From the NCBI GenBank assembly GCA_964610465.1, contig CAZSWA010000008.1:1-63080 (forward strand): a DNA stretch of 63,080 bases, read 5' to 3'. The notes below the pieces were generated by a model. That model was not told the origin of the DNA, made no database searches, and was given only the letters and a program-made list of their open reading frames with translations. This DNA comes from an uncultured Gammaproteobacteria bacterium. GTDB lineage: Bacteria; Patescibacteriota; Microgenomatia; Levybacterales; UBA12049. Below are positions 41,924-62,233 of the stretch, in pieces (position 1 is the first letter of the stretch; every line of letters starts with the position of its first letter). The position numbers were made by a program, and so were the translations under genes.

Positions 41924-41925
41924 AG

Positions 41926-42729: not shown

Positions 42730-42746
42730 AGTATTAGAATAGAGAG

Positions 42747-43238: not shown

Positions 43239-43251
43239 ATGCTTATACGAT

Positions 43252-43800
43252 TTAACAACCATCTGCCATAGGTTTAAATAGAGTATTTGTTCCTCGTAGT
43301 GTCTCTGCAACAGAGTAATTTAGAAAAAATATGACAGGCATATTGCAAATTGCATCTTGAGAAAACCCTTGCTTTTTAAGCCAAACAACTGCATCTTGTT
43401 TCGCAAGAGTGATATTAGTTGAATCAATTTCTCCTTCAAATGTATCAACCGCAGGAATATACATGAGCTCAATATTTGCAGTTTTATAAAGCGTTGCTGG
43501 CTGTTTGTTAATAGAAGTTATAATTGTCTGTCTTAGTTTTGTATCAGATACTGATAATGTTGCTTTATGTTCAAGCCTTTCAGTAAGCTTCGCAAAAGAT
43601 TGCGAATCATATACGACAGGAGGATTTGAAGAAGGAGGAGAGTATCCTTGAGGAGTAAGCGGCACATGGGTAGGAGTAGTCGAAGTAGGTGAGGGATTTG
43701 TTGCTTGCGGAATAAAATTAATAATGAGAATAGAGAGTCCAATAAGAAGAAGTATTGGGAAAGCAATTAAAAAGTAAACACGTTTTCCTAGTCGAAACAT
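43252..43800 (-). CDS. small membrane-anchored exported protein, paralog B
   Basis: The 182-aa ORF has an N-terminal TM helix and a P/S/T-rich linker. The C-terminal domain is homologous to paralog A (AICNMPVIFFLNYSVAETLRGTNTLFKPMADGC versus GVCNLPITFFLDWNIIEEFRSKNMQFNPLPKNC). Confidence 0.65.
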   Translation of the reverse strand: MFRLGKRVYFLIAFPILLLIGLSILIINFIPQATNPSPTSTTPTHVPLTPQGYSPPSSNPPVVYDSQSFAKLTERLEHKATLSVSDTKLRQTIITSINKQPATLYKTANIELMYIPAVDTFEGEIDSTNITLAKQDAVVWLKKQGFSQDAICNMPVIFFLNYSVAETLRGTNTLFKPMADGC

Positions 43801-43839
43801 AGTATCTTTTTATTATAGAGTATTTTTCATATTTTCAAA

Positions 43840-44973
43840 TTAGCGACATAACGCAGGGTTTGGAATAACTGCAGGGTTCATTCGTGCACATCCCCAATAG
43901 CATAGGTTTTGATTTGGTTGTGGTTCAAGTATTGTTTTATTATAAGTAGTAGCATTTGTAATCTGACTGCTCCATAGGACATTTCCTGCATCGTATTGTC
44001 CGTTTCCTTTTCCTAAAGGGTTCATCTGTACTAACCCATATGCGCCTTGACCGCTCGTGGAGTTCCCATTAAAGGCATCAACAAAATATCCACTTTCGCA
44101 TTGAGCAATGAGAGGCCATTTTGAAGCATTTTGCGGATCTTGGGAAGCAAAGGCACTATCTATCATATTGATAACCTGTGCATGTTGATTCTTTTGCTCA
44201 AGGGTTGCTATCTCACAGGTGGGATCGCCAAAGTTGCCATATGGGTTATTTTTTAATTTCGCAGGAGTATAGAATCCTCCGCAGTTGTTATTAGGCGAAC
44301 CGGTTCCTCCTGGACTTGGCAAGGGAGTGGGAACAGCAGAGGGTGCTGGAATTGCAGTTCCAACTGCTTGATTTACGACATAGAGATTATCTTGCGTAGA
44401 AGTAAGCGTGAGAGAAAAAGAATGATTTATAGGAGGTGTTATCGAGCCATTATCACTTAATTTCCAACTAACAGTATTTGTTTGTGTGTCATAGGTAAAT
44501 GTCCCGCTTGCTGTAGCAAATTTAGTCCCTGAAGGCAGTTTATCTTGTACAAAAATATCTTGAACTGCATTAGGATATGTGACAGTTATTTGGTACACTA
44601 AGGTATCGCCTAAATTCGCATGATCTGGTCCTGTTTTTGTAATAGTAAGCAAGTTGTTATTTTGATTTAGACTGTTCTGGTAGTTTATAAAACTTACGAG
44701 GATAACAACGACAAGCCCTAGAATAAGAAGCCAAATTGCAATATAGAGAAGCGCAATAATTTTAAGCGTACGCTGAAACTCTTTATTCTCTAATACTTTA
44801 AAAGCGACATCTACGAGAGGTGCTGCTTCTGGTCCCAGTGCTGCAGTGGCAGCTGCTTTTGTAGCGAACTTCGCCCCCTTTTTTGCGGCGGTTTTGAGAG
44901 CTGTTTTTCCAGCATTTTTCGCAGTTTCTCCTGCCTGTTGCCCAGGTTTTGGTTTGCTTTGATTATTGTCCAT
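43840..44973 (-). CDS. membrane-anchored DUF11-like repeat + Rpf/lytic-transglycosylase-like domain protein (VirB1 analogue candidate)
   Basis: The N-terminus is basic and followed by a TM helix. LTITKTGPDHANLGDTLVYQITVTYPN is a DUF11-type repeat. The C-terminal WPLIAQCESGY...GAYGLVQMN resembles the transglycosylase-like (Rpf) catalytic motif. Confidence 0.65.
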   Translation of the reverse strand: MDNNQSKPKPGQQAGETAKNAGKTALKTAAKKGAKFATKAAATAALGPEAAPLVDVAFKVLENKEFQRTLKIIALLYIAIWLLILGLVVVILVSFINYQNSLNQNNNLLTITKTGPDHANLGDTLVYQITVTYPNAVQDIFVQDKLPSGTKFATASGTFTYDTQTNTVSWKLSDNGSITPPINHSFSLTLTSTQDNLYVVNQAVGTAIPAPSAVPTPLPSPGGTGSPNNNCGGFYTPAKLKNNPYGNFGDPTCEIATLEQKNQHAQVINMIDSAFASQDPQNASKWPLIAQCESGYFVDAFNGNSTSGQGAYGLVQMNPLGKGNGQYDAGNVLWSSQITNATTYNKTILEPQPNQNLCYWGCARMNPAVIPNPALCR

Positions 44974-45023
44974 ACTTTTATACTAGCAGAACTGGAAATC
45001 TGTTCAAACAGTGAAGAAAGTCG

Positions 45024-47036
45024 TTATGGTTTAGGAGTAGTGGGAGAGAGATTGTTTGCTGCAGAACTGATATGCGAGCCAAATCCAGCAGGAGAACTAC
45101 TTTGGGGAGCGGTAGTAGGCACTTGATGAGAAAACATGGATGGTCCTTGTGGCATTGTCGTAGTTGCTGATTGGATTTGAGAATTGGGTTTGAGAGAGGA
45201 CACTGTCGTTGATGGTGTTGTCGCTTGTTTCATCGCCTGGGCTGCTTGTTGTCTCTTCAAGAGTTCGGCAGGATTTGATGTAATGAGCTCATGCTCAAAT
45301 GGTGCAGCAACCACTTTTACTGCTACATGATTCTGTCCGGCAAAAAATAATCCTTCTCCAACATCTGCTGAAAGAAGTAACGCTTTTTCTCCTTCTGTCA
45401 AATAAAATGTATTTGCTATCATATCGACTTCTGCAGTACCTTGTTTTAACAGTATTTGAAGAGAAGAGTTAGTAAGGACTGCTTTGCCGTAATCTGTTTT
45501 TAAAAAATCTTCTACATCCTGTGTGGCAGTAGTTAATCCCAGGAAATATTTTCTCGCGCGTTTGGCAATAGAGTAGACGAAAGAGGCAGAATCCTCAAAC
45601 TTCATCATGTACCATGCCTCATCGAGGATTAAGAGACGTTTATGAAGGTTTCTTTTTACCTTTGTCCAAACGAAATCCAAAATAATATGCATAGCAATAG
45701 GACGAAGCTCTTCTTCCAGATTTTTAATATTAAAAACTGTTAAGGGATTGGTAATATCAAAATTAGATTGTTGATTGAAAATTCCAGCTGCACTTCCCTT
45801 AATAAATTTTTCAAGACGAAGCGCCATGTCTTTGGCTACATTATTTTCCATACCAAGAAGCGTTTTATATAAATCTTCCATAAGAGGAGGTTGTCTTTTC
45901 TGGGTAGCAGGGTCAGGGGTAATGCCTTTTTGCCGGTATGTTTCAATAAGTGCTCTATCCAGGATTGCATCATGTTCAGAGTCAAGTTCTCCCATGATGA
46001 GTTTTAAAAGCCCATGTAGTGATAATATTTTAAGTCCTAATTCATTTTCTCCTTCCTCATAGAGTTCTGAAAGGTCAAAAGGGTTCAGTTTGATAGGAGA
46101 GGAGGAAGAAAACTCTACGTCTTCTCCTCCTAATGTTTTGGCCAGTGTGTCATATTCTCCTTCAGGGTCAATGACAATAACTTCTATGCCAAGGGTAAAC
46201 TGGCGCATAATCTCAAGTTTTATATAATAAGATTTTCCTGCGCCTGATTTTCCAAAGACGACTTCGTTAGCGTTTTCAAGTGAAAATCTGTCAAAGACAA
46301 TAAGTGAGCCATTCTGTTGATTTACGCCATACATAACGCCTCTGTTTTGAGTCAAAATAGCAGAGGTGAAAGGAAATGTTGAAGCGAGTGATGTAGTATC
46401 CATATTTCTCGTGATAAAAAGTTTATCCTGTCCCATGGGGAGACTTGTTTTGAATCCTTCTTCCATTTGGAGCGTCGCTGGTTTTCCGGCAAGGAGAAGC
46501 GATCCAAGTGTCGTTTGTAACTGCTTTATTGTTTGCTGTAATTCAGGTACTGTTTCAGCTGAAACAGTAATATAAAACCCAAACTGAAAAAACCGTTCGA
46601 TGCCTTTTGCCAATTCTTCCTGCAGCGCTTTTGCATCCTCCAAAGCAGCTGTTACGGTTGGGTCTACCGGCTTGCCATGTTCTTGATCAGACGCGATGGT
46701 TGCTTCCATTTCCCCAATTTTTCTTTTTAAGTCAGCAAGTACATCAGTGGATGAAGTCGGATAACAAAACATACTAATATCCATTGTGTGGTCATAATCG
46801 ATAATGGGTTGGAGCCAACCAGGTGATACATAACGAGGATATCCTGCCATAAAAAGCGTACTATAGAAGATATCACCGACACGAATATAGCGATAGTCAA
46901 CCTCAACAGAAGATGGAGCGATAATATCAATAATTGATACCAATCCTTTCTCCAGATTTTCAAGAGCTGCGCCTGGTTTTTTTTGAGCTCCTTGCCCTGC
47001 TTTTGTTACTTGTTTTGGTTTTGGCAATAATCCCAT
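45024..47036 (-). CDS. VirB4/TrbE/TraC-family type IV secretion ATPase
   Basis: Walker A is FGKSGAGKSYYIK and Walker B is LLILDEAWYMM. The N-terminal YRYIRVGDIFYSTLFMAGYPRYVSPGWL is typical of Gram-positive-type VirB4. MGLLPKPKQ at 47036 is the likely start (ORF open to 47075). Confidence 0.85.
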   Translation of the reverse strand: MGLLPKPKQVTKAGQGAQKKPGAALENLEKGLVSIIDIIAPSSVEVDYRYIRVGDIFYSTLFMAGYPRYVSPGWLQPIIDYDHTMDISMFCYPTSSTDVLADLKRKIGEMEATIASDQEHGKPVDPTVTAALEDAKALQEELAKGIERFFQFGFYITVSAETVPELQQTIKQLQTTLGSLLLAGKPATLQMEEGFKTSLPMGQDKLFITRNMDTTSLASTFPFTSAILTQNRGVMYGVNQQNGSLIVFDRFSLENANEVVFGKSGAGKSYYIKLEIMRQFTLGIEVIVIDPEGEYDTLAKTLGGEDVEFSSSSPIKLNPFDLSELYEEGENELGLKILSLHGLLKLIMGELDSEHDAILDRALIETYRQKGITPDPATQKRQPPLMEDLYKTLLGMENNVAKDMALRLEKFIKGSAAGIFNQQSNFDITNPLTVFNIKNLEEELRPIAMHIILDFVWTKVKRNLHKRLLILDEAWYMMKFEDSASFVYSIAKRARKYFLGLTTATQDVEDFLKTDYGKAVLTNSSLQILLKQGTAEVDMIANTFYLTEGEKALLLSADVGEGLFFAGQNHVAVKVVAAPFEHELITSNPAELLKRQQAAQAMKQATTPSTTVSSLKPNSQIQSATTTMPQGPSMFSHQVPTTAPQSSSPAGFGSHISSAANNLSPTTPKP

Positions 47037-47037
47037 A

Positions 47038-47700
47038 TTATACTTTGGCTTGTGTGACAATTGGTGTCTCAACACCTTCTTGTGTTTGCGCTACATCAAG
47101 TGTTACTCCTTCGTTATATTCATCATAAAATAATTTTATGAGATCTTCTTTCTCTAACACACGGGCAGTACTGGAAATTTTTTGAAGCTGAGGAAGGAGA
47201 GCATTTGCTTTCGATTCAAGATTTTTCATTGCTGATACAGCAAAGATGTCTGTTTTTGCTTGTCCTGTTTGTATAGATTGAGAAACTCCAGTTACACCGC
47301 CTTCAAGGGCAGAAAAGGAAATAACTATATAAAAAGATTTATTCAGCACGACATTTACAATTACCATTTCCTGTACAAATGTGCGGTACAGTTTGATATG
47401 GCGTGCCAGTTGGGGATTCTTGGTAGTTGCTGCTGCTTCATCCAGTTCTTTTAGATATGAAGATATATCCATACGTTTATTCCTGATAAGAATTTGAATT
47501 GGGAAGGAAAGTGAGTTAAGGAGCGCAGCATAGGAATAAATTTTTGAATCCTGCTCACGTCTTGAAAGTAAGGCAAAATTACTTGCAGTTACTTCAATGA
47601 CCATTGCCGCATAGCCTCCTTCAAAGAGAACAATATTGTCGCCAAAGTCTACGATCTCTGTAAATTTTTGTGTAGATGCATGAATTTTCTGGACAGCCAT
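47038..47700 (-). CDS. T4SS-associated soluble protein (hypothetical; abuts virB4 start)
   Basis: The 220-aa ORF has no TM helix, and its stop lies 1 nt before the proposed virB4 ATG. It is assigned by context only. Confidence 0.55.
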   Translation of the reverse strand: MAVQKIHASTQKFTEIVDFGDNIVLFEGGYAAMVIEVTASNFALLSRREQDSKIYSYAALLNSLSFPIQILIRNKRMDISSYLKELDEAAATTKNPQLARHIKLYRTFVQEMVIVNVVLNKSFYIVISFSALEGGVTGVSQSIQTGQAKTDIFAVSAMKNLESKANALLPQLQKISSTARVLEKEDLIKLFYDEYNEGVTLDVAQTQEGVETPIVTQAKV

Positions 47701-47704
47701 AGAC

Positions 47705-49030
47705 TTAATTAAATAATGCCTTTCTTAGGTCCTCACGTTCATCGTGAGAAATAATTTCTATTGGTAACATGATTTCTCCTTTGGTAGTTATTTGAATTCT
47801 ATCGAATGTGTGCTGTTTCTTGGGATCTTCAAGCTCTATGGTATAGGTTGCATTTAAGAGTGGAGTTGCTGAGGCAAATTGTCCAAGCGCATTCGTTTTA
47901 AATGCCCGAACAGGATTTTCATCTTTGTCTTTAATCTCAACCAAAATATTTGATAGCACATTGCCTCTTGAATCTTTAACAATTCCTATGACAATGTTTG
48001 GCGTATCAGATACATGTGGCAGCCCGGCACTTTTTGCCATGTTCTGAGGAATTATCCGTGTGTGTTGTATGTCTGGTTGCGGAGCAGGTGGTAATGCTGG
48101 AACAGGAGTTTCAGAGGGGTTGATACTTTGTGGTTTTTGTGCAAGATCAAGCTGGCGTTTAAGAGACATAAGCTCTTGCTCAAGTTGAGTTTTTTGTGCA
48201 TGAACTTCGTTAAGTTGATTTTCTAACTCCTGTACTTTTTTATGCGCTGCTGCTTGATTCTGAGGAGATGATGGGCTTAATTCTTCTTTTTTTGCTTCTT
48301 CAAGTTCCTTTTCAAGTGATTGGCTTTGTTGTTCAAGATTTTGATTCTTTACATCAAGAGGTTGTGGTGGCAGTGGAGCCGATTTCCGCCATTGTGTTTG
48401 GAGCTCCTGATGAATGGCTTCCTTGTTTTTCTCAATTGCAATGTCATCCTGTGTTTTAGGAAGAGAGGCATTGGGGATAGGTTGAATTGTCATAAGCGGT
48501 TGGGGAGAGGAAGACGCAGGAGTTATTGGCATAGCAGAAAACGTTTGAAGGAAAGACGCTTCTTTCTCATCAATCTTACTTCGTACTCCTGAATGTGTAG
48601 TACGAAGGAGCGTTTCAAGCTGACGTGATTTTTCTACTTTTCTAGAAATGTGATGTATTTGTCCTTGTGCGGGTACTGGCACTAATACAACTGTCGTAAT
48701 TGAAAGCTTGCGGCCTAATTTATGATATACAAATTGATTAGGTTCAAATATAGCGTGGACGAAATTCATAAACATTACATCTATTGGCCTTCCATCAATG
48801 GGGACAAAGGCAACGATAACTCCTCCAATAATAGCAATAGGTACAAATCCGAATCTATCAAATAGAAGCCATGGCATTTTAAATGGTAAATACCACGCAA
48901 TAACAGCGAGAATGCAAGCTGCTGCTACATATGCAAACTGCTTAATTGTCATGCTGCCAATCAATTTGAATTGAAAACCGGTAACATCTTGTGGGATTGG
49001 ATGATTATCCATAACTTTAAGAGAGGTCAC
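47705..49030 (-). CDS. PrgI/VirB3-like membrane protein fused to coiled coil and C-terminal beta-sandwich (CarboxypepD_reg-like) domain
   Basis: The N-terminus is PIPQDVTGFQFKLIGSMTIKQFAYVAAACILAVIAWYL plus a second TM helix, the PrgI-family pattern. A Q/E/L-rich coiled coil covers aa ~200-300. The C-terminal IVIGIVKDSRGNVLSNILVEIKD...TYTIEL is a carboxypeptidase-regulatory-like fold motif. Confidence 0.65.
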   Translation of the reverse strand: MTSLKVMDNHPIPQDVTGFQFKLIGSMTIKQFAYVAAACILAVIAWYLPFKMPWLLFDRFGFVPIAIIGGVIVAFVPIDGRPIDVMFMNFVHAIFEPNQFVYHKLGRKLSITTVVLVPVPAQGQIHHISRKVEKSRQLETLLRTTHSGVRSKIDEKEASFLQTFSAMPITPASSSPQPLMTIQPIPNASLPKTQDDIAIEKNKEAIHQELQTQWRKSAPLPPQPLDVKNQNLEQQSQSLEKELEEAKKEELSPSSPQNQAAAHKKVQELENQLNEVHAQKTQLEQELMSLKRQLDLAQKPQSINPSETPVPALPPAPQPDIQHTRIIPQNMAKSAGLPHVSDTPNIVIGIVKDSRGNVLSNILVEIKDKDENPVRAFKTNALGQFASATPLLNATYTIELEDPKKQHTFDRIQITTKGEIMLPIEIISHDEREDLRKALFN

Positions 49031-49187
49031 CGTTTAAAGCTATAATCGGGCAACCTCATCGTACTATTCCAAACAGCATATAACGTGAAAAATGCGATTG
49101 CAAGATTATCAAAATGGGTCAAAAGGGATTAAAAAGACGAGTTTTTGTGAAAACTTCAATTTGATGAGAAGATGAAAAAAATACTTT

Positions 49188-49523
49188 TTACTGACACAAA
49201 AGATTGAAATTGGTGATATCAAGACAGCTTGGATTTCCTGCAAGAAAGCGAATAAAGATGACGATTCCGAACGAGAGAAGGACAAGAATTGCACCGAGGA
49301 TAGCAAAAGTCAATGTTTGGCGAGCACTTTGAACCTGTTTTGGGTCACCACCGGAAAACATAAATTTGATGCCCGCATAAATAATAAAAAGCAATGTAAC
49401 AGCTCCTAAGAAGTAGAGAGCTGCAGTAATAAGATTCGAGAATACTACAGGAATACATTTGAGCGTAGGGACACCGCTACTATCTAAACAACCTGAACTT
49501 ATCCAGTCTTTTCCAATTTGCAT
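49188..49523 (-). CDS. VirB2/TrbC-like pilin paralog 1
   Basis: The 111-aa ORF has two TM helices flanking the loop FSGGDPKQVQSARQTL. One Cys pair lies before TM1 and one after TM2. Confidence 0.7.
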   Translation of the reverse strand: MQIGKDWISSGCLDSSGVPTLKCIPVVFSNLITAALYFLGAVTLLFIIYAGIKFMFSGGDPKQVQSARQTLTFAILGAILVLLSFGIVIFIRFLAGNPSCLDITNFNLLCQ

Positions 49524-49579
49524 AAAGTAAAACTAAAATATCTGGAAATGATTAACGCTTTTAGATGTATTTGCATTGA

Positions 49580-49981
49580 CTAGCAGCCAAGTAAGCATCC
49601 TGGGGTAAGATTTGATAAACTAATATGGAACAATCCAAGTACCAATTGCAGTATGAAGTAGGCCAAGAAAGCTATTACTAAACCAATAATTGCAGAAACA
49701 ATTGTTTTTTGAGCAGCTTCTACCTTTGCTTTGTCTCCACCTGAGAGAATCCAACGAATACCTCCCCAGATAAGGAAGAAAAGAGCAATAAGTACTGCTG
49801 CTATTAAGAGAATAGTAATAACTCTCCCAATTATTACGCCTAATTGGCTTGGATCTGCGCTACAAATGACATTGAATTGTCCGGGAGGACATGCGCTCCC
49901 TATATTTACTTGAGCAAATGCTGGTGCTGCAATTGCGAATGCTGCTGCGATTCCGAGTGCTGTTGCAAATATCTTTTTCAT
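49580..49981 (-). CDS. VirB2/TrbC-like pilin paralog 2 (with signal peptide)
   Basis: The signal peptide is MKKIFATALGIAAAFAIAAPAFA. The two-TM hairpin has the loop LSGGDKAKVEAAQKTI. Cys pairs lie before TM1 and at the C-terminus (GCLLGC). Confidence 0.75.
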   Translation of the reverse strand: MKKIFATALGIAAAFAIAAPAFAQVNIGSACPPGQFNVICSADPSQLGVIIGRVITILLIAAVLIALFFLIWGGIRWILSGGDKAKVEAAQKTIVSAIIGLVIAFLAYFILQLVLGLFHISLSNLTPGCLLGC

Positions 49982-49992
49982 AATCTATAACC

Positions 49993-50022
49993 ATCATAGA
50001 ATAGTTTTTTTCTACTTGTCAA
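49993..50022 (-). promoter_or_regulatory. candidate promoter for pilin paralog 2 (TTGACA - 18 nt - TATGAT)
   Basis: The minus strand reads TTGACAagtagaaaaaaactattcTATGATggttatagattATG. This would give a very short leader with no Shine-Dalgarno. It rests on motif match only. Confidence 0.4.
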
Positions 50023-50104
50023 GGGGCAATATCATTGAGCCGAATTGAGGCTAAAAATAAGGAGAAGGCGCAATGAAATATTGTAAGCAAAAAGAAATTA
50101 TTTT

Positions 50105-50422
50105 TTAGAGTTGTTGAAGATTGACACCAAAAATAGTTCCTAAGGCACTTAGCAAGAAGAAGGAGAGAAGAGTAAGTACAAGTCCGATTATTGCCCAGGT
50201 AAGTCGATTTCTTGCTGCTTGCACTTTTGTTTTATCTCCAGCTGAAGTTATCCATTGTATCCCTCCCCAAACAAGAAAGAAAAGGCAAAGTATGACTGCG
50301 ATAATAAGTACAATGTTTAGACTATTGCGAAGTATTTTAATAAAAGTATTGAGTCCGCCCGTTGCAACACCAGTTGGTGGATTAATTGTCTGTCCGTTTA
50401 CGGACAACGAAAGATACCTCAT
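50105..50422 (-). CDS. VirB2/TrbC-like pilin paralog 3 (Cys-free)
   Basis: The 105-aa ORF has a two-TM hairpin with the loop TSAGDKTKVQAARNRL. It shares the GGTTATAGAT-ATG start context with paralog 2. Confidence 0.7.
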   Translation of the reverse strand: MRYLSLSVNGQTINPPTGVATGGLNTFIKILRNSLNIVLIIAVILCLFFLVWGGIQWITSAGDKTKVQAARNRLTWAIIGLVLTLLSFFLLSALGTIFGVNLQQL

Positions 50423-50476
50423 ATCTATAACCTTACTAACTCACAAAAGAAAAATCAAGTATAAAAAAATAACTGA

Positions 50477-51511
50477 TTAGCATGGTTTGCCCGCTACAGG
50501 TTTACAAGGACTTGTCGCATTGTCTCCCCAGCCTGGGATTTGGAGTACATCCACTCCTACTGTTTCAAGTATCACAAGAGAGAAGATAAGGAATAAAAGT
50601 CCTACGATTGCAGAAGTTAGTCTTTCGCGTGCCCTATTTACCTGCTCTGGTTTGCCTTGTGAAGTAAGAAGTTCATATCCTGAGTAAATAATGATAAGAA
50701 GGGCGATACCGCCAGAAAGAGCAAGCAAAGTACCAAAGAGCCGTGTGATAAAACCTGATGCATCAACTGGCCATGCTCCAAGAGCTGTATTGACCTGCAA
50801 ACAAGTTCCATCCGCACCAAACTGTGCGCAAGGAGGAGCTGGGGGAGAAGGGAATGGATTAAACGTAGGTTGTGTAGGCCCAACAACTGGCGTAGGAACA
50901 ACACAGGTTCCTGTTGCCGCCTGTATACCACCAGCAAGGTCGCAGGTGAGACCTTTGTCCGTGCAACACGGTGGAAGAATGTCCCCACATTTGTCGCCGG
51001 CATTACCGCAGTTATTTGGTATTGACTTGCAGGTTCCCTGAGTTGAGAAACCGCCGGGTACATCACAGTAAAATCCACTACAACAATCGCTATTTATGGA
51101 GCAGGTTCCACCACTTCCTCCGCATGTTTTTCCAACTTGTTGTGTTACGCATTTGCCTGGTGTTTGGCCGTTAATTCCGCTTGAATATCCTTTACATGTA
51201 AGTGGAGGATTCTGTGCGATACAACAATCTTTCATGGTAGAGGTATTGAAGCCAGTACCAATATAACAGTTATCTCCTGGTCCTGCGCAATTCACACCTG
51301 GCTGTGGAATAGCACACGAACCATCTGCATTTGGGTTAAGTGGACTTAGTACGCAAACTAGTGGTTGTGACGGATTGCTACAGCAGGGCTGCAGAGAATT
51401 ACACGTTCCTCCAACATTACTTATACATTGAGCCGCATCTGCTCCGGGAGAAGTTGCAGAAGATAATAAGAGCAGACAACAAAATACTAGTAAAAGCAAT
51501 GTTTTTTTCAC
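50477..51511 (-). CDS. VirB2/TrbC-like pilin paralog 4 with N-terminal four-fold knottin-like cystine-module extension
   Basis: The likely GTG start at 51511 gives the signal peptide (M)KKTLLLLVFCCLLLLSSATSPGADA (ORF open to 51547). Four C-x6-7-C-x5-13-CC-x4-8-C-x11-14-C modules follow, then a P-rich linker and the pilin hairpin (LLIIIYSGYELLTSQGKPEQVNRARERLTSAIVGLLFLIF). Confidence 0.75.
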   Translation of the reverse strand: MKKTLLLLVFCCLLLLSSATSPGADAAQCISNVGGTCNSLQPCCSNPSQPLVCVLSPLNPNADGSCAIPQPGVNCAGPGDNCYIGTGFNTSTMKDCCIAQNPPLTCKGYSSGINGQTPGKCVTQQVGKTCGGSGGTCSINSDCCSGFYCDVPGGFSTQGTCKSIPNNCGNAGDKCGDILPPCCTDKGLTCDLAGGIQAATGTCVVPTPVVGPTQPTFNPFPSPPAPPCAQFGADGTCLQVNTALGAWPVDASGFITRLFGTLLALSGGIALLIIIYSGYELLTSQGKPEQVNRARERLTSAIVGLLFLIFSLVILETVGVDVLQIPGWGDNATSPCKPVAGKPC

Positions 51512-51588
51512 TCTTTTAGCATAACACCAAAAAAGAAAAAAGTGCAAGATGGTTGAAGAAGAACTTACAACACGCTAAAATAAATACT

Positions 51589-52920
51589 ATGGAAGAAAAA
51601 CACTTAGAGTCTTTATATCCTGCAAACGCCCGATTTGATGAGATTCAGAAAATCCTTAATTATATCAAAGAAGGGAATTCCTGTCAGCTTGTTGGTTTGC
51701 CTGGTGTTGGTAGGTCAAATCTTTTGGATTTCTTAGCATATAACCGTAGTATCCGATATGCTCATTTGGGAGAGAAACAAGCTGCAAGTATTCATTTCGT
51801 TCCTGTTGATTTCTCAGAAGTAAGGGGCAAGCAACTTTTTGATGTGATGAAATTTTTGTTTTTATCTCTGGTCGAATCCCTCAGGGACAGAAAAAAGGAA
51901 GAAGAATATACAACAGTTGATAAGATATTTCGGGATTATCTGGGATTTCATGACGAACTGGTATTCTTTCAAGGCTTAAAGCAAGCAATTGATTACCTCG
52001 CTCTTGAGAAGGGATTTACTATTGTCTTCCTTTTTGACCGCTTTGAAGAGTATATCCCCAATGCAACAACTGAGTTTTTTACCAATCTTCGGATTCTGAG
52101 ACGTCATGCCAAGTATCATTTCTCAGTCGTTTTCTCTCTCAACAGACCGCTTGAGGAAATGCTTGAACCATCTCTTTTTGCAGATTTTTATGAATTTGTA
52201 GCAGGACATATTGTATATATGTCTCTTTTTGATAAACCAGGAGTGGATTTCAGGCTTTCTTACTTGCAAAAATTGACCGGCAGGAAGATTCCTGATAAAA
52301 TAATTGAGGAGATAATTCATCTTACAGGAGGACATAGCAAGCTTATCAGACTTTCAGCAGAAGCCTATCTTGCCCATTTCAAAGAAGGAGAAGAGATGAG
52401 TGAGTTTCTTCTTTCTCAAAAACCAGTAAGAAGCGGGCTTATGGAAATTTGGCGTTCTCTTACTCCAGCCGAACAAACAGCGATTCTCAAAAAAGATTTT
52501 GCAGATACCAATATTCGTAGCTATTTTGAAAATGTGGGAGTATTAAAAGATACTACTATCACTATTCCACTTTTTGCGGAATTTATACAGAATCAATTTG
52601 TCCCTGAACAAATAGAAAAGGCAAAAATAGAGTTTGATGAACATACGAATACTATCAAAAAAGGCGAGGTAGTGCTGTCTGACACGCTTACCTCAGCCGA
52701 ATTTCGCCTGCTTAAGCATCTTTTACACAATCAGGATAGGATACTGGAGCGGCAAGAAATAATCCAAATTGTCTGGCAGGATCTCAAGTCTCAAGCTGGA
52801 ATTACTGATCAGGCAGTTGATCAGCTTATTTTTCGATTGAGACGCAAAATAGAAGACAATCCCAACAATCCAGAACATCTGCAAACTGTCAAAGGCCGAG
52901 GATTCAAATTTACCGCGTAA
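51589..52920 (+). CDS. P-loop ATPase (AAA/STAND-like) with C-terminal OmpR/PhoB-type winged-helix domain
   Basis: The Walker-A-like motif is GLPGVGRSNL and the Walker-B-like motif is IVFLFDRFEE. The C-terminus is RQEIIQIVWQDLKSQAGITDQAVDQLIFRLRRKIEDNPNNPEHLQTVKGRGFKF. It is divergent from the pilin genes, and the ATG at 51589 is preferred over the TTG at 51553. Confidence 0.75.
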   Translation: MEEKHLESLYPANARFDEIQKILNYIKEGNSCQLVGLPGVGRSNLLDFLAYNRSIRYAHLGEKQAASIHFVPVDFSEVRGKQLFDVMKFLFLSLVESLRDRKKEEEYTTVDKIFRDYLGFHDELVFFQGLKQAIDYLALEKGFTIVFLFDRFEEYIPNATTEFFTNLRILRRHAKYHFSVVFSLNRPLEEMLEPSLFADFYEFVAGHIVYMSLFDKPGVDFRLSYLQKLTGRKIPDKIIEEIIHLTGGHSKLIRLSAEAYLAHFKEGEEMSEFLLSQKPVRSGLMEIWRSLTPAEQTAILKKDFADTNIRSYFENVGVLKDTTITIPLFAEFIQNQFVPEQIEKAKIEFDEHTNTIKKGEVVLSDTLTSAEFRLLKHLLHNQDRILERQEIIQIVWQDLKSQAGITDQAVDQLIFRLRRKIEDNPNNPEHLQTVKGRGFKFTA

Positions 52921-52996
52921 TATTTGTAAGCTTCCTAAAACTTCTTTATAAGGTTTGTGTCAAGACTTCATGTGCTCCCAAATGTAAACTTCCATT

Positions 52997-55900
52997 ATGA
53001 AAGAGAGAGGACAGAGTCCCAGTGAAGAACCAAATAAAAAGCCGGTTCAAGGCCGAAGTGGTGAAGAAAGATTGACAACTCGTCCTCCAGCGCCGTATGC
53101 TAAAGAGAGAGATATTTTTATGGCAGAAAACGGAGAAGGCCAAAAACCGCAGGGACAAGATCCCAATTCAACACCTAACCAGTCAAGGCGTCCAGAAACA
53201 GGAGGTGAAAGTGGCGGTGGAGAGCCTCCACGTCCTCCAAGAGATACTGCAGGAGCACAAGGCGCCCCAGAAGATGATCAAGGGTCACAGAAACAGAATG
53301 AAGGTCAATCGCAGTCTCAAGAACAACAAAGACAGGATAGGACACAAAGACAATCCAAGCAGCGAGAAAATGAACAGCAAATGAATCCTGATTTATTAAA
53401 AACAACCTTGCAAGATCTAATAGCGCTGCATAAAAGAGATGGTGATAGCCCTAAGGAAGATGAAATTAAAAGATATGAAGCATTTTATCGTCGATTACCT
53501 GTAAATATATTAGGGGAAACCGCAAAAGAAATTGGTGATTTGCTTCACGAATTAAGAAACGTTGGGAAGCCTAACAAAGAAGAAGCATCTTTGAAAGAAA
53601 AAAATGATTTAATTCAATCTATAAAAGATTTACTTCAAAACCCAAACGTTCCTATGCAACTTTACGCAAGGTTTTACAGCCGATTTACAAAGCTCATTGA
53701 AGAAAGTCCTTCATTATTAAACTCGCTTACACAGAAGGATAAAGAGACTTATCAACAGCTTGAAGCTAAGATAAAAAAAGAGCCGGTAGAACACGAAAAG
53801 TCTGATAAGGCTACTATCGATGAGAAAATTAAGAGTATTAAAGAAGGGAGCCTTTCTAAAGATACGGCGAATAACTTTGCTAGTCTCAGATGGTATTTAA
53901 ATATGATAAACGATAGTATAAAAAAGGGAAGTCTTATCTTAACTAAGGAAAATAAAGAGATAATAGAAGAAGCGTTAAGTATACAAGCTTATGACGCAGG
54001 AGGAAGGCCAATCACAGATACTGATGTTTTGAAAAGAATGCAGAATGTAGCTGAAAGATTGGAAGACGAAGTACAGCTCTCCAATTATTTTGATAAAGAA
54101 AATGTGAAAGATGAAACTGAAGGTGAAGAATTAGGATTACCTTCAAATCTTGATAGATTGATACTTCGAGTTATGGATAGTGCACCAGAGGAATATAGAA
54201 GAGGACGGGAAAAAGCCTTAATGGACGAAGAAAATAATATCAATTACCATAATTTTCTTGACTGGATGCGTTATAGAGCATGGGATGAAATTAACACAAA
54301 TCCTAATTCGCGCGTAAATATACTTGGATTATCGGTTCCTGCTCGAGGCTACTATAATATATCGATTGAAGATATGGCAAGACAAGCACGATATATAAGA
54401 AGAGAGAAATATGAGTTTTCTGGTGATGAGACACAGGGAAAAGAACATGTGACCGGAAGGAAATATTACTATACGGACAAATTTTATGAAAAATTTAGAA
54501 CAAAATCACTATTATATGAAGCATGGCTTATAACACAAAGTCACGAGAGAAGCCTTATAAAGCTTACTAGAGCCAACGATAAGGGAGTAGTTGAACAACT
54601 GGCTGGAACATTCAGAATGAATATTATGACTGATAATGGAGAGGATGAAAGTGCCCGTTTTATTCTCATGGCAAAACTCCCCAAACGTGATAAAGAACAG
54701 CTAAGGAGATATGTAGAAGAGGAAGAGGCAGGAGATGTAGGATATATTTTTAATATCCTGACACGGGCATATTATCATCTTGCAGAGCTTGGGGATAATG
54801 ATGAAAGGACACTTAAGGACAACGAATTCTATAACACTCTTGGAGCTACTAGAGTTGATAATTTGTGGAAATTTATGATTAGAAAATCACTCAATAGAGG
54901 AACTCAAGCGCGCGAACAATATAAAGGATACATAAATGGGAGAGTACAAGAACTTCTTACTCAACATAGGTCAAGGTTAAACGATGCAGAAATAAATGAA
55001 GTTGAGAGAGAGATAGCTAGTCTTGGTACTAAAAACGCATCGGAATTGCCAGAGGAAATTGATGAAAGTCCTGAATATCAACGAATAAAAGCTATAATTT
55101 ATCCTAAAATTAATAAGCAAGTTACTGAACGTGACTCGTATCAAGAGCATGAAAAACTTGGTTTGTCACTTCTTAAAACCGCATATGGGTTTGAGAGAAA
55201 AAAATTGAATTATTTCAATGATTCAAATGCTGCTCCAGAGCTTAAGATTTTAGTCGACGATGCATTAGTTGAAACTGTATGTAAAGATGCTGGACTTGAA
55301 GGAAACGAACAGGCATATATTACTCAATGGGTAAGGGATAATTTATATTGGACATTGACAGTCGCAAGAAATGATACCGGAGGGGTAGGATACTTTGCAA
55401 AATACATGAATACAGGATTTTATCGAAAAAGACAAACTGGAGGGAATGAAATAGGCAATCCATACAATATTGATGGATGGAAACATGGGTTATCCTATCT
55501 TGATGCACTACGGTTTACTAAGGTGGGTGGAAATGAAGAAGCAAAGACACTGATCCAAATATTAGGAGAGATGGCTAAGAAAAAAACAACCACAGATAAA
55601 TATGTAGGTCCAGGGCAACAAGAAGCAAACTATTCAGATTTAATGTTACTAAATCAAGTAGAACTATTTGAATGGCTTAGAAAGACAAGAAGAATACAAT
55701 GGGAAGGTTTAAAGAGAACTCAATTTGGAGAAGTAGAAAGTCATGAGTTGGAAGAAAAACTATTGGGGCCTAATCCAAGCTTACGACATTTTATTCAATA
55801 CGGCTTTGATATGATTCAGCCTCAATATGATGCGAGTATACGAACATGGGACTGGGAATACGAAACTGATACTAAAGGGAATTTAATATTGGATGAGCAA

Positions 55901-56377
55901 GGAAGACCAAAATCACCAAAGAAAGTATTCAAAACAGTTACCATAAGAGAGCATATGTTTGATGAGGAAGTACTTAAGATGGGAATGTACGATAGGTTTA
56001 AAACAAATCCATTAGATAAAGAAAAAGCAGTGCTAAGAAACTATTTCTTTTATATTATAGAAAAGGATTTACAAGCACGAAGAACTGCAGGTTCAGGATA
56101 TCCTGGTATTTCTCTTGAACTTATACATATGATAGGAGAATTCTTTCAAAGGCGAGAGATTACTCCTGAAGAGGTAGAAACAGAAGAAGGCAAAAAAAAT
56201 CCAAAGAGGCAAGGTATGCTTGATGAGTATGAATGGAACAAAATCGTTCATATGGCCCATGCAACTGATAAAGAAATGTTACGGGAAGAAGGTTGGGCGG
56301 AAGTCCTTAGTGTGTTAACTATTTTTCTTGGGAGGATGTGGGGAAGTATAGTAAGAAGCTCGGTTCCTAAACCATAA
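52997..56377 (+). CDS. 1126-aa orphan protein with ~130-aa disordered P/Q/G/E-rich N-terminus
   Basis: This is a long uninterrupted ORF that is highly charged (E/K/R-rich). It has no P-loop, HExxH or other motif I recognise, and one possible C-terminal hydrophobic helix (VLSVLTIFLGRMWGSIV). Confidence 0.7.
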   Translation: MKERGQSPSEEPNKKPVQGRSGEERLTTRPPAPYAKERDIFMAENGEGQKPQGQDPNSTPNQSRRPETGGESGGGEPPRPPRDTAGAQGAPEDDQGSQKQNEGQSQSQEQQRQDRTQRQSKQRENEQQMNPDLLKTTLQDLIALHKRDGDSPKEDEIKRYEAFYRRLPVNILGETAKEIGDLLHELRNVGKPNKEEASLKEKNDLIQSIKDLLQNPNVPMQLYARFYSRFTKLIEESPSLLNSLTQKDKETYQQLEAKIKKEPVEHEKSDKATIDEKIKSIKEGSLSKDTANNFASLRWYLNMINDSIKKGSLILTKENKEIIEEALSIQAYDAGGRPITDTDVLKRMQNVAERLEDEVQLSNYFDKENVKDETEGEELGLPSNLDRLILRVMDSAPEEYRRGREKALMDEENNINYHNFLDWMRYRAWDEINTNPNSRVNILGLSVPARGYYNISIEDMARQARYIRREKYEFSGDETQGKEHVTGRKYYYTDKFYEKFRTKSLLYEAWLITQSHERSLIKLTRANDKGVVEQLAGTFRMNIMTDNGEDESARFILMAKLPKRDKEQLRRYVEEEEAGDVGYIFNILTRAYYHLAELGDNDERTLKDNEFYNTLGATRVDNLWKFMIRKSLNRGTQAREQYKGYINGRVQELLTQHRSRLNDAEINEVEREIASLGTKNASELPEEIDESPEYQRIKAIIYPKINKQVTERDSYQEHEKLGLSLLKTAYGFERKKLNYFNDSNAAPELKILVDDALVETVCKDAGLEGNEQAYITQWVRDNLYWTLTVARNDTGGVGYFAKYMNTGFYRKRQTGGNEIGNPYNIDGWKHGLSYLDALRFTKVGGNEEAKTLIQILGEMAKKKTTTDKYVGPGQQEANYSDLMLLNQVELFEWLRKTRRIQWEGLKRTQFGEVESHELEEKLLGPNPSLRHFIQYGFDMIQPQYDASIRTWDWEYETDTKGNLILDEQGRPKSPKKVFKTVTIREHMFDEEVLKMGMYDRFKTNPLDKEKAVLRNYFFYIIEKDLQARRTAGSGYPGISLELIHMIGEFFQRREITPEEVETEEGKKNPKRQGMLDEYEWNKIVHMAHATDKEMLREEGWAEVLSVLTIFLGRMWGSIVRSSVPKP

Positions 56378-56392
56378 AGTCTTTTATTGCTC

Positions 56393-58120
56393 TCAAGTTT
56401 TTTCAGGTTCAGGTTGTCCAAATCTTTCTTTTTGCCCTAATAATCCTTTGACAGCAAGTTCTCTTCGTTGTTGCCATTTGGCAGGAAGTTTGGGGCCACG
56501 TCTTCCTGCGAGAATGTCATATGTATATCCTCTTAAAATACCTGCCTGATGATAATAACTTGCTGGGCGAGTCATTCTTTTCCATGCAAGACCAGAAGCG
56601 CCGGCAACAGGTGCTGCTCCACCCGCAATTCCAGCGCCAATTGCAGCAGATACAGCTTGAGAGGTTTTTGCTCCAATGGAGTTTCTTATAATATCCAAAA
56701 GACTTGGTGTGACAAGTAAAACTCCTAATACTGCCAAAGCCTGAAAATGAGAGATATTGGGGTTTGCGGTAAGTGGAGGGATGAACCATTTATTATCTCC
56801 TGTAGGTTGTACAGTAGTCTCTAGGATACGTGCGAAAACCAAAAGAAGCGCAGTTGCAGGAAAGACTGCAAGATTGGCAAACATACGTCGTATCCATCCT
56901 TGGAATCCTCCTAAAGGTTTGCCTGGTAGAAGTCCAAGAAGAATATAAAGAGGAGAGGCCACAGTATAGACAAGGACCATAGCATACGCTTTGAGAAGGG
57001 CAAACCAGATACGAAAGAGCAATACAATAAGAATAATAAAGATAATAAGTGCTGATACTACTGCCACTAATCTACTTACAATAAATCCGAAAAAATCTGC
57101 TACACAAGCTCCTGGGTCAACGCTAGGAGGGAAACCGCCTATACATTGGGCATTCGGATTTGAATTAAAAAAATTACTGATAATACCACCAATAATAGAA
57201 CCTAATGAGCCAGCAACGTCTCCGGATACACTAAATACGCCTCCTCCTGTAAGGAAATTACAACCTTCTGAAAATACGTCATTAAAAAATCCTAAAGGAT
57301 GAGTAAGTAGATCTTGCGTTGCAAGTTGAGAAAGTGGAGTAGTACCACAACCGCCTCCACCTGCATGAGGGATAGGCACATTCATACCTTGGCCTTGTGT
57401 CATAATGTTAATACCCGCATAGGTTGCTATCCACATCGCATCCACCATAGCCCCTGCGATTGCATAAGAAAAAGTAATAAGAAGAATTCCGATAATAACG
57501 CGTGGAATTTGATTTTGTACGGTCATTACAGTACGAGGGTCAATTTTAATTCTCAGCATTACTGCAAGGCCGATTATGATGAAAACAACAACAAGCGCAA
57601 GATACGCAACATCTCGTATTGACACCCACATGTTAAGAAGGGGACGTAAAGCATCAAATCCGCTATTTTGCGCATATACATGTTTTACGAGGCCAAAATT
57701 ACTTGACATGTAACGGACATAATCTAATCCACTTGCAGGAGGGGTATAAAGAGCAGTAATAAGATTAGTAGATAGCCCAAGAACTCCTCCAATTTGAGTA
57801 GAATTGTTTGGAGCTAGTCCAAGCTTATGAGACTGAGGATTAATTCCCAGACAGGACTGAGTTGGATTTATAGGGTCAACGCCTACTAATTCACAAACTA
57901 CCGCAGAGGTTACTTCGATAAGTACTGACTGAGCGTAAGTATGTAAATTATGAGGGACATTTGAATCAGTATTAGGCACAACATAAGAATTTAAGTCGGT
58001 AGTTGTTTGGGCGTAAGTAATACTTACAAATGGAACTGTGAAAAAAAAGAAGACAAGCAATATACAAAGAGCACAAAAAAGAATTTTTTGTACGCAAAAT
58101 AACCGGGCAGGGAAGCGCAT
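56393..58120 (-). CDS. polytopic membrane protein, VirB6/TrbL-like candidate
   Basis: The 575-aa ORF has an N-terminal signal/TM, a ~140-aa extracytoplasmic segment and then at least 6 TM helices. Its context is a VirB4/VirB2 locus. The family assignment rests on architecture and context, not on a diagnostic motif. Confidence 0.55.
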   Translation of the reverse strand: MRFPARLFCVQKILFCALCILLVFFFFTVPFVSITYAQTTTDLNSYVVPNTDSNVPHNLHTYAQSVLIEVTSAVVCELVGVDPINPTQSCLGINPQSHKLGLAPNNSTQIGGVLGLSTNLITALYTPPASGLDYVRYMSSNFGLVKHVYAQNSGFDALRPLLNMWVSIRDVAYLALVVVFIIIGLAVMLRIKIDPRTVMTVQNQIPRVIIGILLITFSYAIAGAMVDAMWIATYAGINIMTQGQGMNVPIPHAGGGGCGTTPLSQLATQDLLTHPLGFFNDVFSEGCNFLTGGGVFSVSGDVAGSLGSIIGGIISNFFNSNPNAQCIGGFPPSVDPGACVADFFGFIVSRLVAVVSALIIFIILIVLLFRIWFALLKAYAMVLVYTVASPLYILLGLLPGKPLGGFQGWIRRMFANLAVFPATALLLVFARILETTVQPTGDNKWFIPPLTANPNISHFQALAVLGVLLVTPSLLDIIRNSIGAKTSQAVSAAIGAGIAGGAAPVAGASGLAWKRMTRPASYYHQAGILRGYTYDILAGRRGPKLPAKWQQRRELAVKGLLGQKERFGQPEPEKT

Positions 58121-58163
58121 ATATACTTTAGTTTGGTATATTTTATAGTGAATGTCAAGTTAG

Positions 58164-58250
58164 CGGTGGGACCGGGATTCGAACCCGGGGTAACCTTACG
58201 GCTACACACGCTCTCCAAGCGTGCTCTTTAAACCACTCAGACATCCCACC
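58164..58250 (-). tRNA. tRNA-Ser(GGA), class II, CCA not encoded
   Basis: The reverse complement folds with acceptor GGTGGGA/TCCCACC and anticodon stem CACGC/GCGTG with loop TTGGAGA. It has a long variable arm, the T-arm CCGGG-TTCGAAT-CCCGG and discriminator G. Confidence 0.9.
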
Positions 58251-58264
58251 ATCGTTACTATTAT

Positions 58265-58693
58265 CTATTTGCCATTTGCTATTAGCTCTTTCGCTTCTTT
58301 CCACACGTCTTTATCTGATTTATAAGTGAGACGTTCTCCAACTTTATCAATTGGTAGCCACTCAACGTTTTCCATTTCCCAATCATGTTTGGTAATATTT
58401 CCTTCTACAAATTCCATCAAGTAGTAATACACAGTCTTTTTAATCTTCTCACTGTTGAGGACATACCAGTAAGTCACCGGCTTAAGCTCTTTTAGTATTT
58501 TGCCTGTGACTCCTGTTTCTTCCTTTACTTCACGCAATGCTGTTTCCTCTTTGCCTTCTCCCTTGATATGATCGCCAATAAGTCCTTTGGGAAAGACCCA
58601 GCCATGGTGTTGTGAGTGCTGAGAGACAAGGATAAAAGTTTTTTCTTCCTCTCTTTTAACTACCACTCCGCCTGCTGAAAATTCAAATTTCAT
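58265..58693 (-). CDS. NUDIX hydrolase
   Basis: The Nudix box is GEGKEETALREVKEETGVTG. The ORF is 142 aa. Confidence 0.85.
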   Translation of the reverse strand: MKFEFSAGGVVVKREEEKTFILVSQHSQHHGWVFPKGLIGDHIKGEGKEETALREVKEETGVTGKILKELKPVTYWYVLNSEKIKKTVYYYLMEFVEGNITKHDWEMENVEWLPIDKVGERLTYKSDKDVWKEAKELIANGK

Positions 58694-58832
58694 ATGTAAA
58701 TTTCTTATTAGTATTTTGTAAAGATAATATCAAGCAGTAAGGCCTGATTTTTCGTATTCTAACTGTGTAATTATATCGTATTTACTTGACAAATGCAGCT
58801 AATTGAACGAAGATAAATAAGAAAGGGGGTGG

Positions 58833-59114: not shown

Positions 59115-59115
59115 T

Positions 59116-62229: not shown

Positions 62230-62233
62230 CATC

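Follow-up and report, generated by a model that had tools for sequence, protein, structure and literature searches.

We analysed a single contig of 63,080 nucleotides (CAZSWA010000008.1 of assembly GCA_964610465.1; hereafter, the window), which carries the name of an uncultured gammaproteobacterium and the GTDB lineage Patescibacteriota, Microgenomatia, Levybacterales. A nearly contiguous set of genes at positions 43840 to 58120 encodes a membrane-anchored cell-wall hydrolase, a VirB4-type ATPase, a TrsD-like protein, a PrgI/VirB3-like protein, four VirB2-like pilins, a transcription regulator, a large cytoplasmic protein and a VirB6-like membrane protein. Judging from homology and gene order, this block is very probably a resident, chromosomal type IV secretion system (T4SS) and pilin locus, adjacent to the replication origin of a Levybacteria-like (class Microgenomatia) genome, of the Patescibacteria clade that is nested in the monoderm MPF_FATA systems. 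An earlier sequence-only reading had proposed a resident, non-conjugative T4SS-like machine of an epibiotic bacterium with a small genome. All open reading frames (ORFs) that it named are present in our ORF listing and translations, and the proposal is supported by the related loci, by their conserved order at dnaN-dnaA and by the co-variation of VirB4 with DnaA and DnaN.

The gene at 45024–47036 (reverse strand) encodes a VirB4-type ATPase of the MPF_FATA type without the canonical N-terminal domain, as matches in NCBIfam, Pfam and the Protein Data Bank (PDB) agree. The proposed VirB4 identity was borne out by profile hidden Markov model (HMM) searches: the protein scores 390 bits (1.7e-116) against the NCBIfam model conju_CD1110, whose cutoff is 325, covering model positions 178–733 of 752, and it matches Pfam P-loop_TraG at 9e-27. 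Both the Walker A (GKSGAGKS) and Walker B (LLILDEAW) motifs are intact, and the ATPase domain resembles PDB entry 4AG5, the C-terminal domain of a Firmicute VirB4 (3.7e-43). There are more than 8000 homologues, uniform in length at roughly 640–750 aa, the top ones being 73–83% identical. For comparisons across genomes, we used 80 related loci obtained from a VirB4 scan of species-representative genomes, in which neighbouring genes were located by tblastn within 10 kb of virB4.

Directly upstream of virB4 lies the abutting 220-aa soluble protein that had been pointed out before (47038–47700, reverse strand), and it can now be described as TrsD-like, that is, as a stand-alone homologue of the VirB4 N-terminal domain. 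It matches positions 128–233 of the VirB4_plasma model at 4.3e-6 and, weakly, TrsD (0.03). As the VirB4 ORF covers only the part of the CD1110 model given above, the 220-aa protein corresponds in sequence to an N-terminal part of VirB4 that is missing from the ATPase ORF. The gene ends with a stop codon that abuts the start of virB4, and it is found in this position, within 10 kb by tblastn and directly upstream of virB4, in 77 of the 80 related loci. This adjacency, together with the uniform length of VirB4 homologues, indicates that the split between TrsD and VirB4 is ancestral and not the result of a frameshift. TrsD has been described as a stand-alone protein resembling the VirB4 N-terminus and is reported to be more abundant in Patescibacteria than any other T4SS component (PMC12102498).

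Two further proteins would contribute membrane components. The first, a 441-aa PrgI/VirB3-like membrane protein (47705–49030, reverse strand), scores 30.9 bits against PF12666 (cutoff 27), which agrees with its earlier assignment. Its two transmembrane (TM) helices are followed by an extension of about 340 aa, in which a Pro/Gln-rich linker leads through a coiled coil to a CarboxypepD_reg-like beta-sandwich, the last matching its model at 1.6e-5, under the cutoff of that model. PrgI is detected by tblastn within 10 kb of virB4 in 76 of the 80 loci, where it is conserved at full length, including the long C-terminal extension. The second, at 56393–58120 (reverse strand), is a polytopic 575-aa protein with a signal or TM segment and about seven further hydrophobic helices. 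It has no direct Pfam match and nothing was found with PDB sequence profiles, so that its assignment comes from a fold search and from transitive Pfam matches: 12 of 40 homologues match TrbL/VirB6 (PF04610; best 4.1e-7), and the top seven PDB fold matches of its AlphaFold2 model (pLDDT 73) are all TrwI/VirB6 of R388, with E 4.6e-3 and probabilities up to 0.99 but low TM-scores. These matches favour the VirB6/TrbL-like identity suggested previously. VirB6 homologues were reported to be scarce in Microgenomatia by an HMM survey (PMC12102498), and our profile and fold matches point to a VirB6 that is present but divergent in the Levybacteria-type lineage of this class.

Four genes, all on the reverse strand, encode VirB2-like T4SS pilins, each with two hydrophobic helices and each exceeding the gathering cutoff of PF18895 (T4SS_pilin; 26.6 bits): a 111-aa protein with two TM helices and two Cys pairs (49188–49523; 29.3 bits), a 133-aa protein with a signal peptide (49580–49981; 39.4 bits), a 105-aa protein (50105–50422; 46.1 bits) and a 356-aa protein (50477–51547; 31.4 bits over residues 266–328). 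Pairwise identity among them is 22–39%. The original description of four two-TM pilins of VirB2/TrbC type thus holds for the pilin family and the helices, but the TrbC part does not, since TrbC/VirB2 (PF04956) reaches at best E 0.048 and 14.3 bits on these proteins, against a cutoff of 27.9. The 105-aa pilin also matches the NCBIfam Mbov_0395 pilin-like model, at 37.7 bits, below the cutoff of 40. Just upstream of the 133-aa pilin is a promoter-like site, TTGACA-18-TATGAT (50022–49993), of a kind whose count in the region is not above chance.

The 356-aa pilin has a composite layout: a signal peptide is followed by four tandem six-Cys C-C-CC-C-C (knottin-like) repeats, a Pro-rich linker and the VirB2-like pilin domain. 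The repeats occupy residues ~41–215 with the spacing C-x6/7-C-x5..13-CC-x4..8-C-x11..14-C, which is the inhibitor-cystine-knot (knottin) pattern; three of the four were detected by a pattern scan, and the fourth was read off the Cys spacing. The protein contains 31 Cys in total. In related genomes, orthologues occur in few relatives and retain only the pilin domain, without the Cys repeats.

Downstream of virB4, the gene at 43840–44973 (reverse strand) encodes a membrane-anchored cell-wall hydrolase, which is, by its domain content, a probable functional equivalent of VirB1. A basic cytoplasmic N-terminal tail precedes a TM segment (residues 78–96), after which come an Ig-like DUF11 domain and, at the C-terminus, a lysozyme/SLT-like domain containing the motifs CESGY...GAYGLVQMN. 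This protein had been read as a TM-anchored DUF11 and lytic-transglycosylase-like protein. The TM segment and DUF11 stand (DUF11 28.5 bits, cutoff 24.6; TIGR01451 31 bits, cutoff 24), whereas the transglycosylase match is sub-threshold for the protein taken alone (Transglycosylas, 0.019) and the assignment is better supported at the level of the family. Specifically, 4 of 22 homologues match SLT (PF01464), the family profile resembles the C-type lysozyme 6t5s (1.3e-4) in an alignment that spans the catalytic Glu, and Glu293 (E293) is invariant in the family, so the C-terminal domain appears clearly lysozyme/SLT-like at the family level. The gene is directly downstream of virB4 in 22 relatives with a match to the C-terminal domain, some of which add Peptidase_M15_4 or glucosaminidase domains.

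Beyond the hydrolase, two overlapping paralogous genes (42747–43800, reverse strand) encode proteins of 187 and 182 aa, each consisting of an N-terminal TM segment, a Pro-rich linker and an extracytoplasmic domain of ~110 aa that has a pair of conserved Cys residues; throughout this family, C152 and C182 do not vary. These accessory genes give tblastn matches in 19–21 loci and profile matches in 22. The family has no match in Pfam, PHROG or PDB sequences, and when the two proteins were considered as candidates for VirB8, which has an NTF2 fold, their family profile likewise matched nothing among PDB sequences. Also between dnaN and the T4SS block, at 41926–42729 (reverse strand), is a gene for a secreted, Cys-rich protein of 267 aa (10 Cys) with a HEAGH zinc-metallopeptidase motif and a weak Peptidase_M57 match; it is conserved in just 3 of the 80 loci.

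A transcription regulator is encoded on the forward strand at 51553–52920, divergently from the pilin genes and co-directionally with the large gene downstream. It combines a degenerate P-loop/STAND-like N-terminal domain with an OmpR/PhoB-type winged helix. The earlier description as a divergent ATPase-winged-helix regulator is correct in its orientation and in the winged helix (Trans_reg_C, 6.2e-19), but its ATPase part is weak: AAA_16 reaches only 0.016, and in the Walker A motif, GLPGVGRS, the Lys is replaced by Arg. PDB matches are confined to the winged-helix domain. The regulator is kept at the same position in 22 loci, in either orientation. A paralogue with 23% identity is located at 27815–29164 (reverse strand), adjoining the gene for phosphoglycerate kinase, and its Walker A is fully degenerate (GMKRVGIGN).

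The gene that follows (52997–56377, forward strand) contains an ORF of 1126 codons and encodes a large cytoplasmic protein. No TM segment and no Walker A motif are found in it, and it has a single Cys. The AlphaFold2 model (overall pLDDT 77.6, pTM 0.73) shows a disordered N-terminus and a confident fold over residues ~270–1100, where pLDDT is about 90. Neither the protein itself nor 33 homologues have a Pfam match, and the protein gave no PHROG, PADLOC or PDB sequence-profile match; Foldseek returned none in the PDB (best E 0.5) or in BFVD (best E 0.03, probability 0.11). When the regulator and the large protein were considered together as a defence module, PADLOC yielded noise only, and this reading was rejected.

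The large ORF is real, but it is not the orphan that it was first taken for. An exhaustive search of 1.84 billion representative proteins found 47 distant relatives, and a protein of 884–1668 aa is encoded at the same place and in the same orientation in every Levybacteria-like locus with enough flanking sequence. The family profile finds it in 18 of the 50 loci with at least 9 kb upstream (E 1e-31 to 1e-205). These homologues adjoin the VirB6-like gene, are always on the strand opposite to virB4, and always lie between the VirB6-like gene and the regulator. Their pairwise identity is about 19–54%, with one close pair at 74%, and the family falls into two subgroups that are bridged by locus L032. 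On these profile data, the large protein belongs to a fast-evolving family that is restricted to T4SS loci of the Levybacteria type, and its gene is among the fastest-evolving of the locus.

The gene has its own conserved, near-consensus sigma-70-type promoter, TTGACA-18-TATGCT, at 53072–53101 (forward strand). Both hexamers, -35 and -10, are kept without exception in the 15 positional homologues that were aligned, but more distant members of this set differ in the spacer; equivalents are present in loci L001, L003, L005, L006, L007, L012, L013, L015, L016, L018, L020, L032, L033 and L037. The form typical of the family is TTGACN-17-TATAAT, and in most relatives an ATG occurs 6 nt after the -10 hexamer, which implies that the mRNA would be leaderless in them. 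With the promoter in this place and an ATG at 53120, translation in the window probably begins at 53120, giving a product of probably 1085 aa. A peptide that initially appeared to be a conserved N-terminus of the large protein, LTGFSQSRYNxxM, was discarded as such, since the DNA alignment shows the promoter and then the ATG, mistranslated by ORF callers.

The block begins ~2.6 kb from dnaN. The replication-origin region (38436–41253, forward strand) includes dnaA (38528–39880) and dnaN (40081–41253), both assigned with Pfam. Perfect DnaA boxes occur just twice in the window, at 38436 and 39942, both in this region and flanking dnaA. The number of DnaA boxes over the window is at chance level, so that the information lies solely in where the two perfect ones are. 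The cumulative GC skew reaches its minimum at ~35–38 kb. With dnaA, dnaN and the perfect boxes 2.6–5 kb away, the closeness to the replication origin that had been supposed for this block is confirmed.

The block is equally distinguished by what it lacks. Pfam searches on essentially all plausible genes, and NCBIfam searches, found no type IV coupling protein (T4CP), relaxase, integrase, VirB11 or VirB7/9/10 in the window, and a repeat search revealed no att-like direct repeats flanking the block, with only short repeats at chance level. Thus, the absences reported from the letters alone hold, for the 63 kb of this contig. At the end of the block next to the VirB6-like gene there is a tRNA-Ser(GGA) gene (58163–58250, reverse strand; ARAGORN), a position that led us to consider an integrative conjugative element (ICE) inserted at this tRNA. 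However, no direct repeat of the tRNA end exists in 41200–58400, no other att-like repeat flanks the block and no integrase was found, leaving no sign of an integration site. The GC content of the block is similar to that of its flanks.

The same arrangement recurs in related genomes. The nearest loci are in metagenome-assembled genomes (MAGs) of Candidatus Levyibacteriota, or in mislabelled MAGs, with VirB4 proteins 73–83% identical to that of the window and with identical synteny, while more distant loci are found in Gottesman-, Woese-, Shapiro- and Chisholmbacteria and other Microgenomatia. The Levybacteria-like loci have a fixed order: the VirB6-like gene, the large protein on the opposite strand, the regulator, three pilins, PrgI, TrsD, VirB4, the wall hydrolase and one or more small TM proteins, and further along dnaN and dnaA in the opposite direction, with yidC facing the same way as virB4. 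Within 10 kb of virB4, tblastn detects dnaN in 58 and dnaA in 56 of the 80 loci. We therefore find that the gene order is indeed conserved next to dnaN-dnaA in related Patescibacteria, a check that the sequence-only reading had called for. MAGs with a locus of the Levybacteria type are often labelled ‘uncultured Gammaproteobacteria’, ‘Sulfotelmatobacter’, ‘Acidiferrales’, ‘Bathyarchaeia’ or ‘Clostridia’ (among loci L001–L080). Their dnaA-dnaN-T4SS synteny indicates that they are Patescibacteria and that the source names are unreliable.

Furthermore, VirB4 identity tracks the identity of DnaA and DnaN across loci (Spearman rho 0.67 and 0.76, respectively), and in the Levybacteria-like set the median identity of VirB4 (76%) exceeds that of DnaA (66%) and DnaN (63%). 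That VirB4 co-varies with these replication proteins and is better conserved than they are argues for a long-resident, vertically inherited machine under purifying selection, and not for a recent or decaying mobile element.

These features correspond to a kind of system that has already been published for Patescibacteria (the candidate phyla radiation). In the saccharibacterium Southlakia epibionticum ML1, the T4SS cluster SEML1_0006–0019 was found by transposon sequencing (Tn-seq) to be essential for epibiotic growth, a requirement known only from this species; it resembles Gram-positive conjugation systems and has essential pilins, but neither a coupling protein nor a relaxase can be recognised in it (Wang et al. 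2023, PMC10633639). A survey of 3035 Patescibacteria genomes found VirB4 in 2417 of them, forming a monophyletic clade nested in MPF_FATA, with PrgI/VirB3 and VirB6 near virB4, arrays of 2–11 pilin genes, especially in Microgenomatia, relaxases in only 103 genomes, T4CPs mostly far from virB4, and, in Paceibacteria and Microgenomatia, an enrichment of dnaA and dnaN around this gene (Quinonero-Coronel et al. 2025, PMC12102498). A 2025 FEMS review treats these systems as a recognised newcomer class (PMC12857230).

In every sequence-level property that we tested, the locus resembles the chromosomal T4SSs of this clade. Its VirB4 appears to be of MPF_FATA affinity by the CD1110 score, and the closest relatives are patescibacterial, as judged from the best 80 loci and their shared synteny. 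A TrsD-like gene, recognised by its VirB4_plasma match, adjoins virB4 as in the related loci, PrgI/VirB3 and (at the family level) VirB6 membrane parts are nearby, and a wall hydrolase is encoded downstream of virB4. The four PF18895 pilins form a divergent array, as in the published clusters, where the mean identity is 25%, and within the window the cluster has neither relaxase nor T4CP and has dnaA and dnaN as neighbours. Compared with the Southlakia prototype, this Levybacteria (Microgenomatia) version has four pilins instead of six, one of them with knottin-like repeats, a PrgI with the ~340-aa extension, and a fast-evolving protein of ~1000 aa and an OmpR-type regulator inserted between the pilins and virB6. 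In addition, Levybacteria are uncultivated.

The locus can also be compared with better-known systems. With the MPF_FATA conjugation systems (pGO1 Trs, pCF10 Prg/Pcf and C. difficile CTn2 CD1110), the locus shares a VirB4 that scores above the trusted cutoff of CD1110, TrsD, PrgI and VirB6/PrgH-type parts, a VirB1-type wall hydrolase and the lack of a VirB7/9/10 outer-membrane core. It differs from them in having VirB2-like pilins, which are absent from Gram-positive systems, in its chromosomal, origin-adjacent and vertically inherited state, and in the absence from the window of a relaxase, T4CP, oriT, integrase and PrgB-type adhesin. Neither the relaxase and T4CP nor the integrase and att repeats that define an ICE or a conjugative MPF_FATA system are present in any sizeable ORF or flank of the window. 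The two-helix VirB2-type pilins, a VirB6-like protein whose best fold matches are to TrwI, and the equivalents of VirB3 and VirB4 are reminiscent of the diderm VirB/Trw systems (MPF_T; Agrobacterium, R388). However, VirB5, VirB7–11 and VirD4 are missing from the window, the envelope is that of a monoderm, and the pilins belong to PF18895 instead of TrbC.

By homology with the VirB/Trw and Prg/Trs systems, we propose a working model in which VirB4 and the separate TrsD-like protein would dock on the PrgI/VirB3-like and VirB6-like proteins to form a translocon in the cytoplasmic membrane. The membrane-anchored DUF11-lysozyme/SLT-like enzyme would breach the peptidoglycan locally in the manner of VirB1, and the four VirB2-like pilins would be pulled from the membrane by VirB4 and polymerised, giving a conduit or a filament on the cell surface. 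The OmpR-type regulator, situated between the divergent promoters of the pilins and the large gene, could control both. As for the large protein, we tentatively entertain the idea, which has a rather low probability, that it is a dedicated part of Levybacteria T4SSs without a known counterpart, either a substrate or effector that the machine translocates, or a recruiting factor in the cytoplasm that takes the place of the missing coupling protein.

In this model the machine is not a conjugation apparatus. Because a homologous system is essential for the epibiotic growth of Southlakia epibionticum, its role is, by analogy, most likely to be contact with a host cell or the transfer of material to or from that cell; the order of assembly, the formation of a pilus, the substrate and the dependence on a host, like the choice among filament, effector export and uptake, are what we infer from such comparisons. 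The role of the system has been called completely unknown in a 2024 PNAS perspective, with effector delivery and nucleotide uptake among the ideas put forward (PMC11665869). We favour, by analogy, protein export or a host-contact filament, to which we give slightly better than even chances, over the uptake of host material such as nucleic acids, which seems unlikely, and over the export of DNA, which seems distinctly improbable; some other role is a little less probable than uptake and a little more so than DNA export.

As a rival explanation, which we consider fairly unlikely, the block could serve for uptake, in the way of Helicobacter ComB or the Ced system of Sulfolobales, so that an auxotrophic epibiont would import DNA, RNA or other macromolecules from its host. 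Such a function has been raised for Saccharibacteria, whose nucleotides must come from the host and in which competence is dispensable (PMC11665869), and the VirB4 of the window does match the archaeal DNA-import ATPase CedB. This match is weak, however (1.8e-15, 56.6 bits); it is far under the 700-bit cutoff of the CedB model and amounts to generic VirB4 similarity. Moreover, no ComEC-like or ComB-specific partners are encoded in the block.

A still less probable explanation is that the block provides just the mating-pair formation for a conjugative or DNA-export system that works, with the coupling protein and relaxase encoded at some other chromosomal site. In origin, the VirB4 family is one of conjugation ATPases, T4CP homologues are frequent in Patescibacteria and usually far from virB4 (PMC12102498), and no more than 63 kb of the genome lies in the window. 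On the other hand, relaxases were rare in the survey cited above, and in Southlakia the T4CP is non-essential whereas the T4SS genes are essential (PMC12102498). The window extends 43 kb from the block on one side and 5 kb on the other, and over these distances it has neither a relaxase nor an oriT-like element nor an integrase; the locus is also fixed beside oriC and diverges along with DnaA. Lastly, the notion of a decaying, non-functional remnant of an integrated conjugative element stripped of its transfer genes, which could appeal to the missing relaxase, T4CP and integrase and to the tRNA-Ser gene abutting one end, is effectively refuted by intact ORFs with their catalytic motifs, the same gene order in dozens of species, a VirB4 more conserved than DnaA and DnaN, the absence of att repeats, a GC content like that of the flanks and the essentiality of the homologous system in Southlakia (PMC10633639).

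Several points weigh against our preferred reading of the block as a resident machine for host contact or export. A T4CP or relaxase may lie elsewhere in the genome, given that T4CP homologues are common in Patescibacteria away from virB4. Two components are assigned indirectly: the putative VirB1 through family-level and not direct sequence matches, and the putative VirB6 through family-level matches and a modelled fold with low TM-scores. No VirB8-like component was found in the window with Pfam or NCBIfam. The target promoters of the regulator are guesses; promoter-like sites across the region are not commoner than in shuffled sequences, and because the counts of promoter and terminator sites do not exceed the shuffled expectation, any operon structure of the block would be putative.

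The other genes of the window are, by Pfam, housekeeping genes (among them primase, sigma-70, RuvABC, a class I aminoacyl-tRNA synthetase, phosphoglycerate kinase, YidC, Jag, DnaA, DnaN and L25) and a few unknowns. Only two traces resemble mobile elements, a 154-aa ORF with an IS1595-type transposase zinc ribbon (9393–9857, forward strand) and a small ORF with a weak HNH match (12317–12715, forward strand); the T4SS block is more than 30 kb away from either. Beyond the block, five tRNA genes (Ser-GGA, Arg-CCG, Ser-CGA, Arg-GCG and Ser-TGA) at 58163–62230 are interleaved with three low-complexity, highly charged ORFs (58833–60809), none of which has a family match; in the last of them, of 448 aa, a C-terminal TM segment serves as a tail anchor. 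An inositol monophosphatase gene is split at 12908–13767 (reverse strand), with 13486–13767 corresponding to positions 11–75 of the Pfam model and 12908–13396 to positions 108–256, which suggests a disrupted gene or an assembly error. A 154-aa ORF at 18354–18818 (forward strand) has only a ChlI/Lon-like N-terminal domain and looks like a truncated gene of the ComM/YifB type; directly after it, 18825–19688 (forward strand) encodes a protein of the class A beta-lactamase family (PF13354, 2.7e-52). Two long ORFs, of 1610 aa (48–4880, forward strand) and 537 aa (5206–6819, reverse strand), have no Pfam or PHROG match, and the former shows only weak coiled-coil, SMC-like matches in PADLOC.

The T4SS locus is thus real and well annotated, but it is not a discovery: the lack of a relaxase, the pilin arrays, TrsD and the proximity to the origin were covered earlier by Wang 2023 (Cell), Quinonero-Coronel 2025 (Microb Genom) and the 2025 FEMS review. 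To the published survey our analysis adds the family of the large protein and its conserved promoter, the divergent VirB6, the knottin-like pilin and the conserved family of TM-anchored accessory proteins of ~180 aa. The window brings no new concept; what it provides is a clean example, annotated throughout, from a lineage without a cultured member, the Levybacteria. The T4SS of Patescibacteria is essential in the one species that is genetically tractable, and no other monoderm T4SS has VirB2-like pilins. The divergent VirB6, the large protein family without a known structural relative and the pilin with cystine-knot-like repeats are specific to the lineage and would escape the published HMM survey, and they could guide structural or metaproteomic work.

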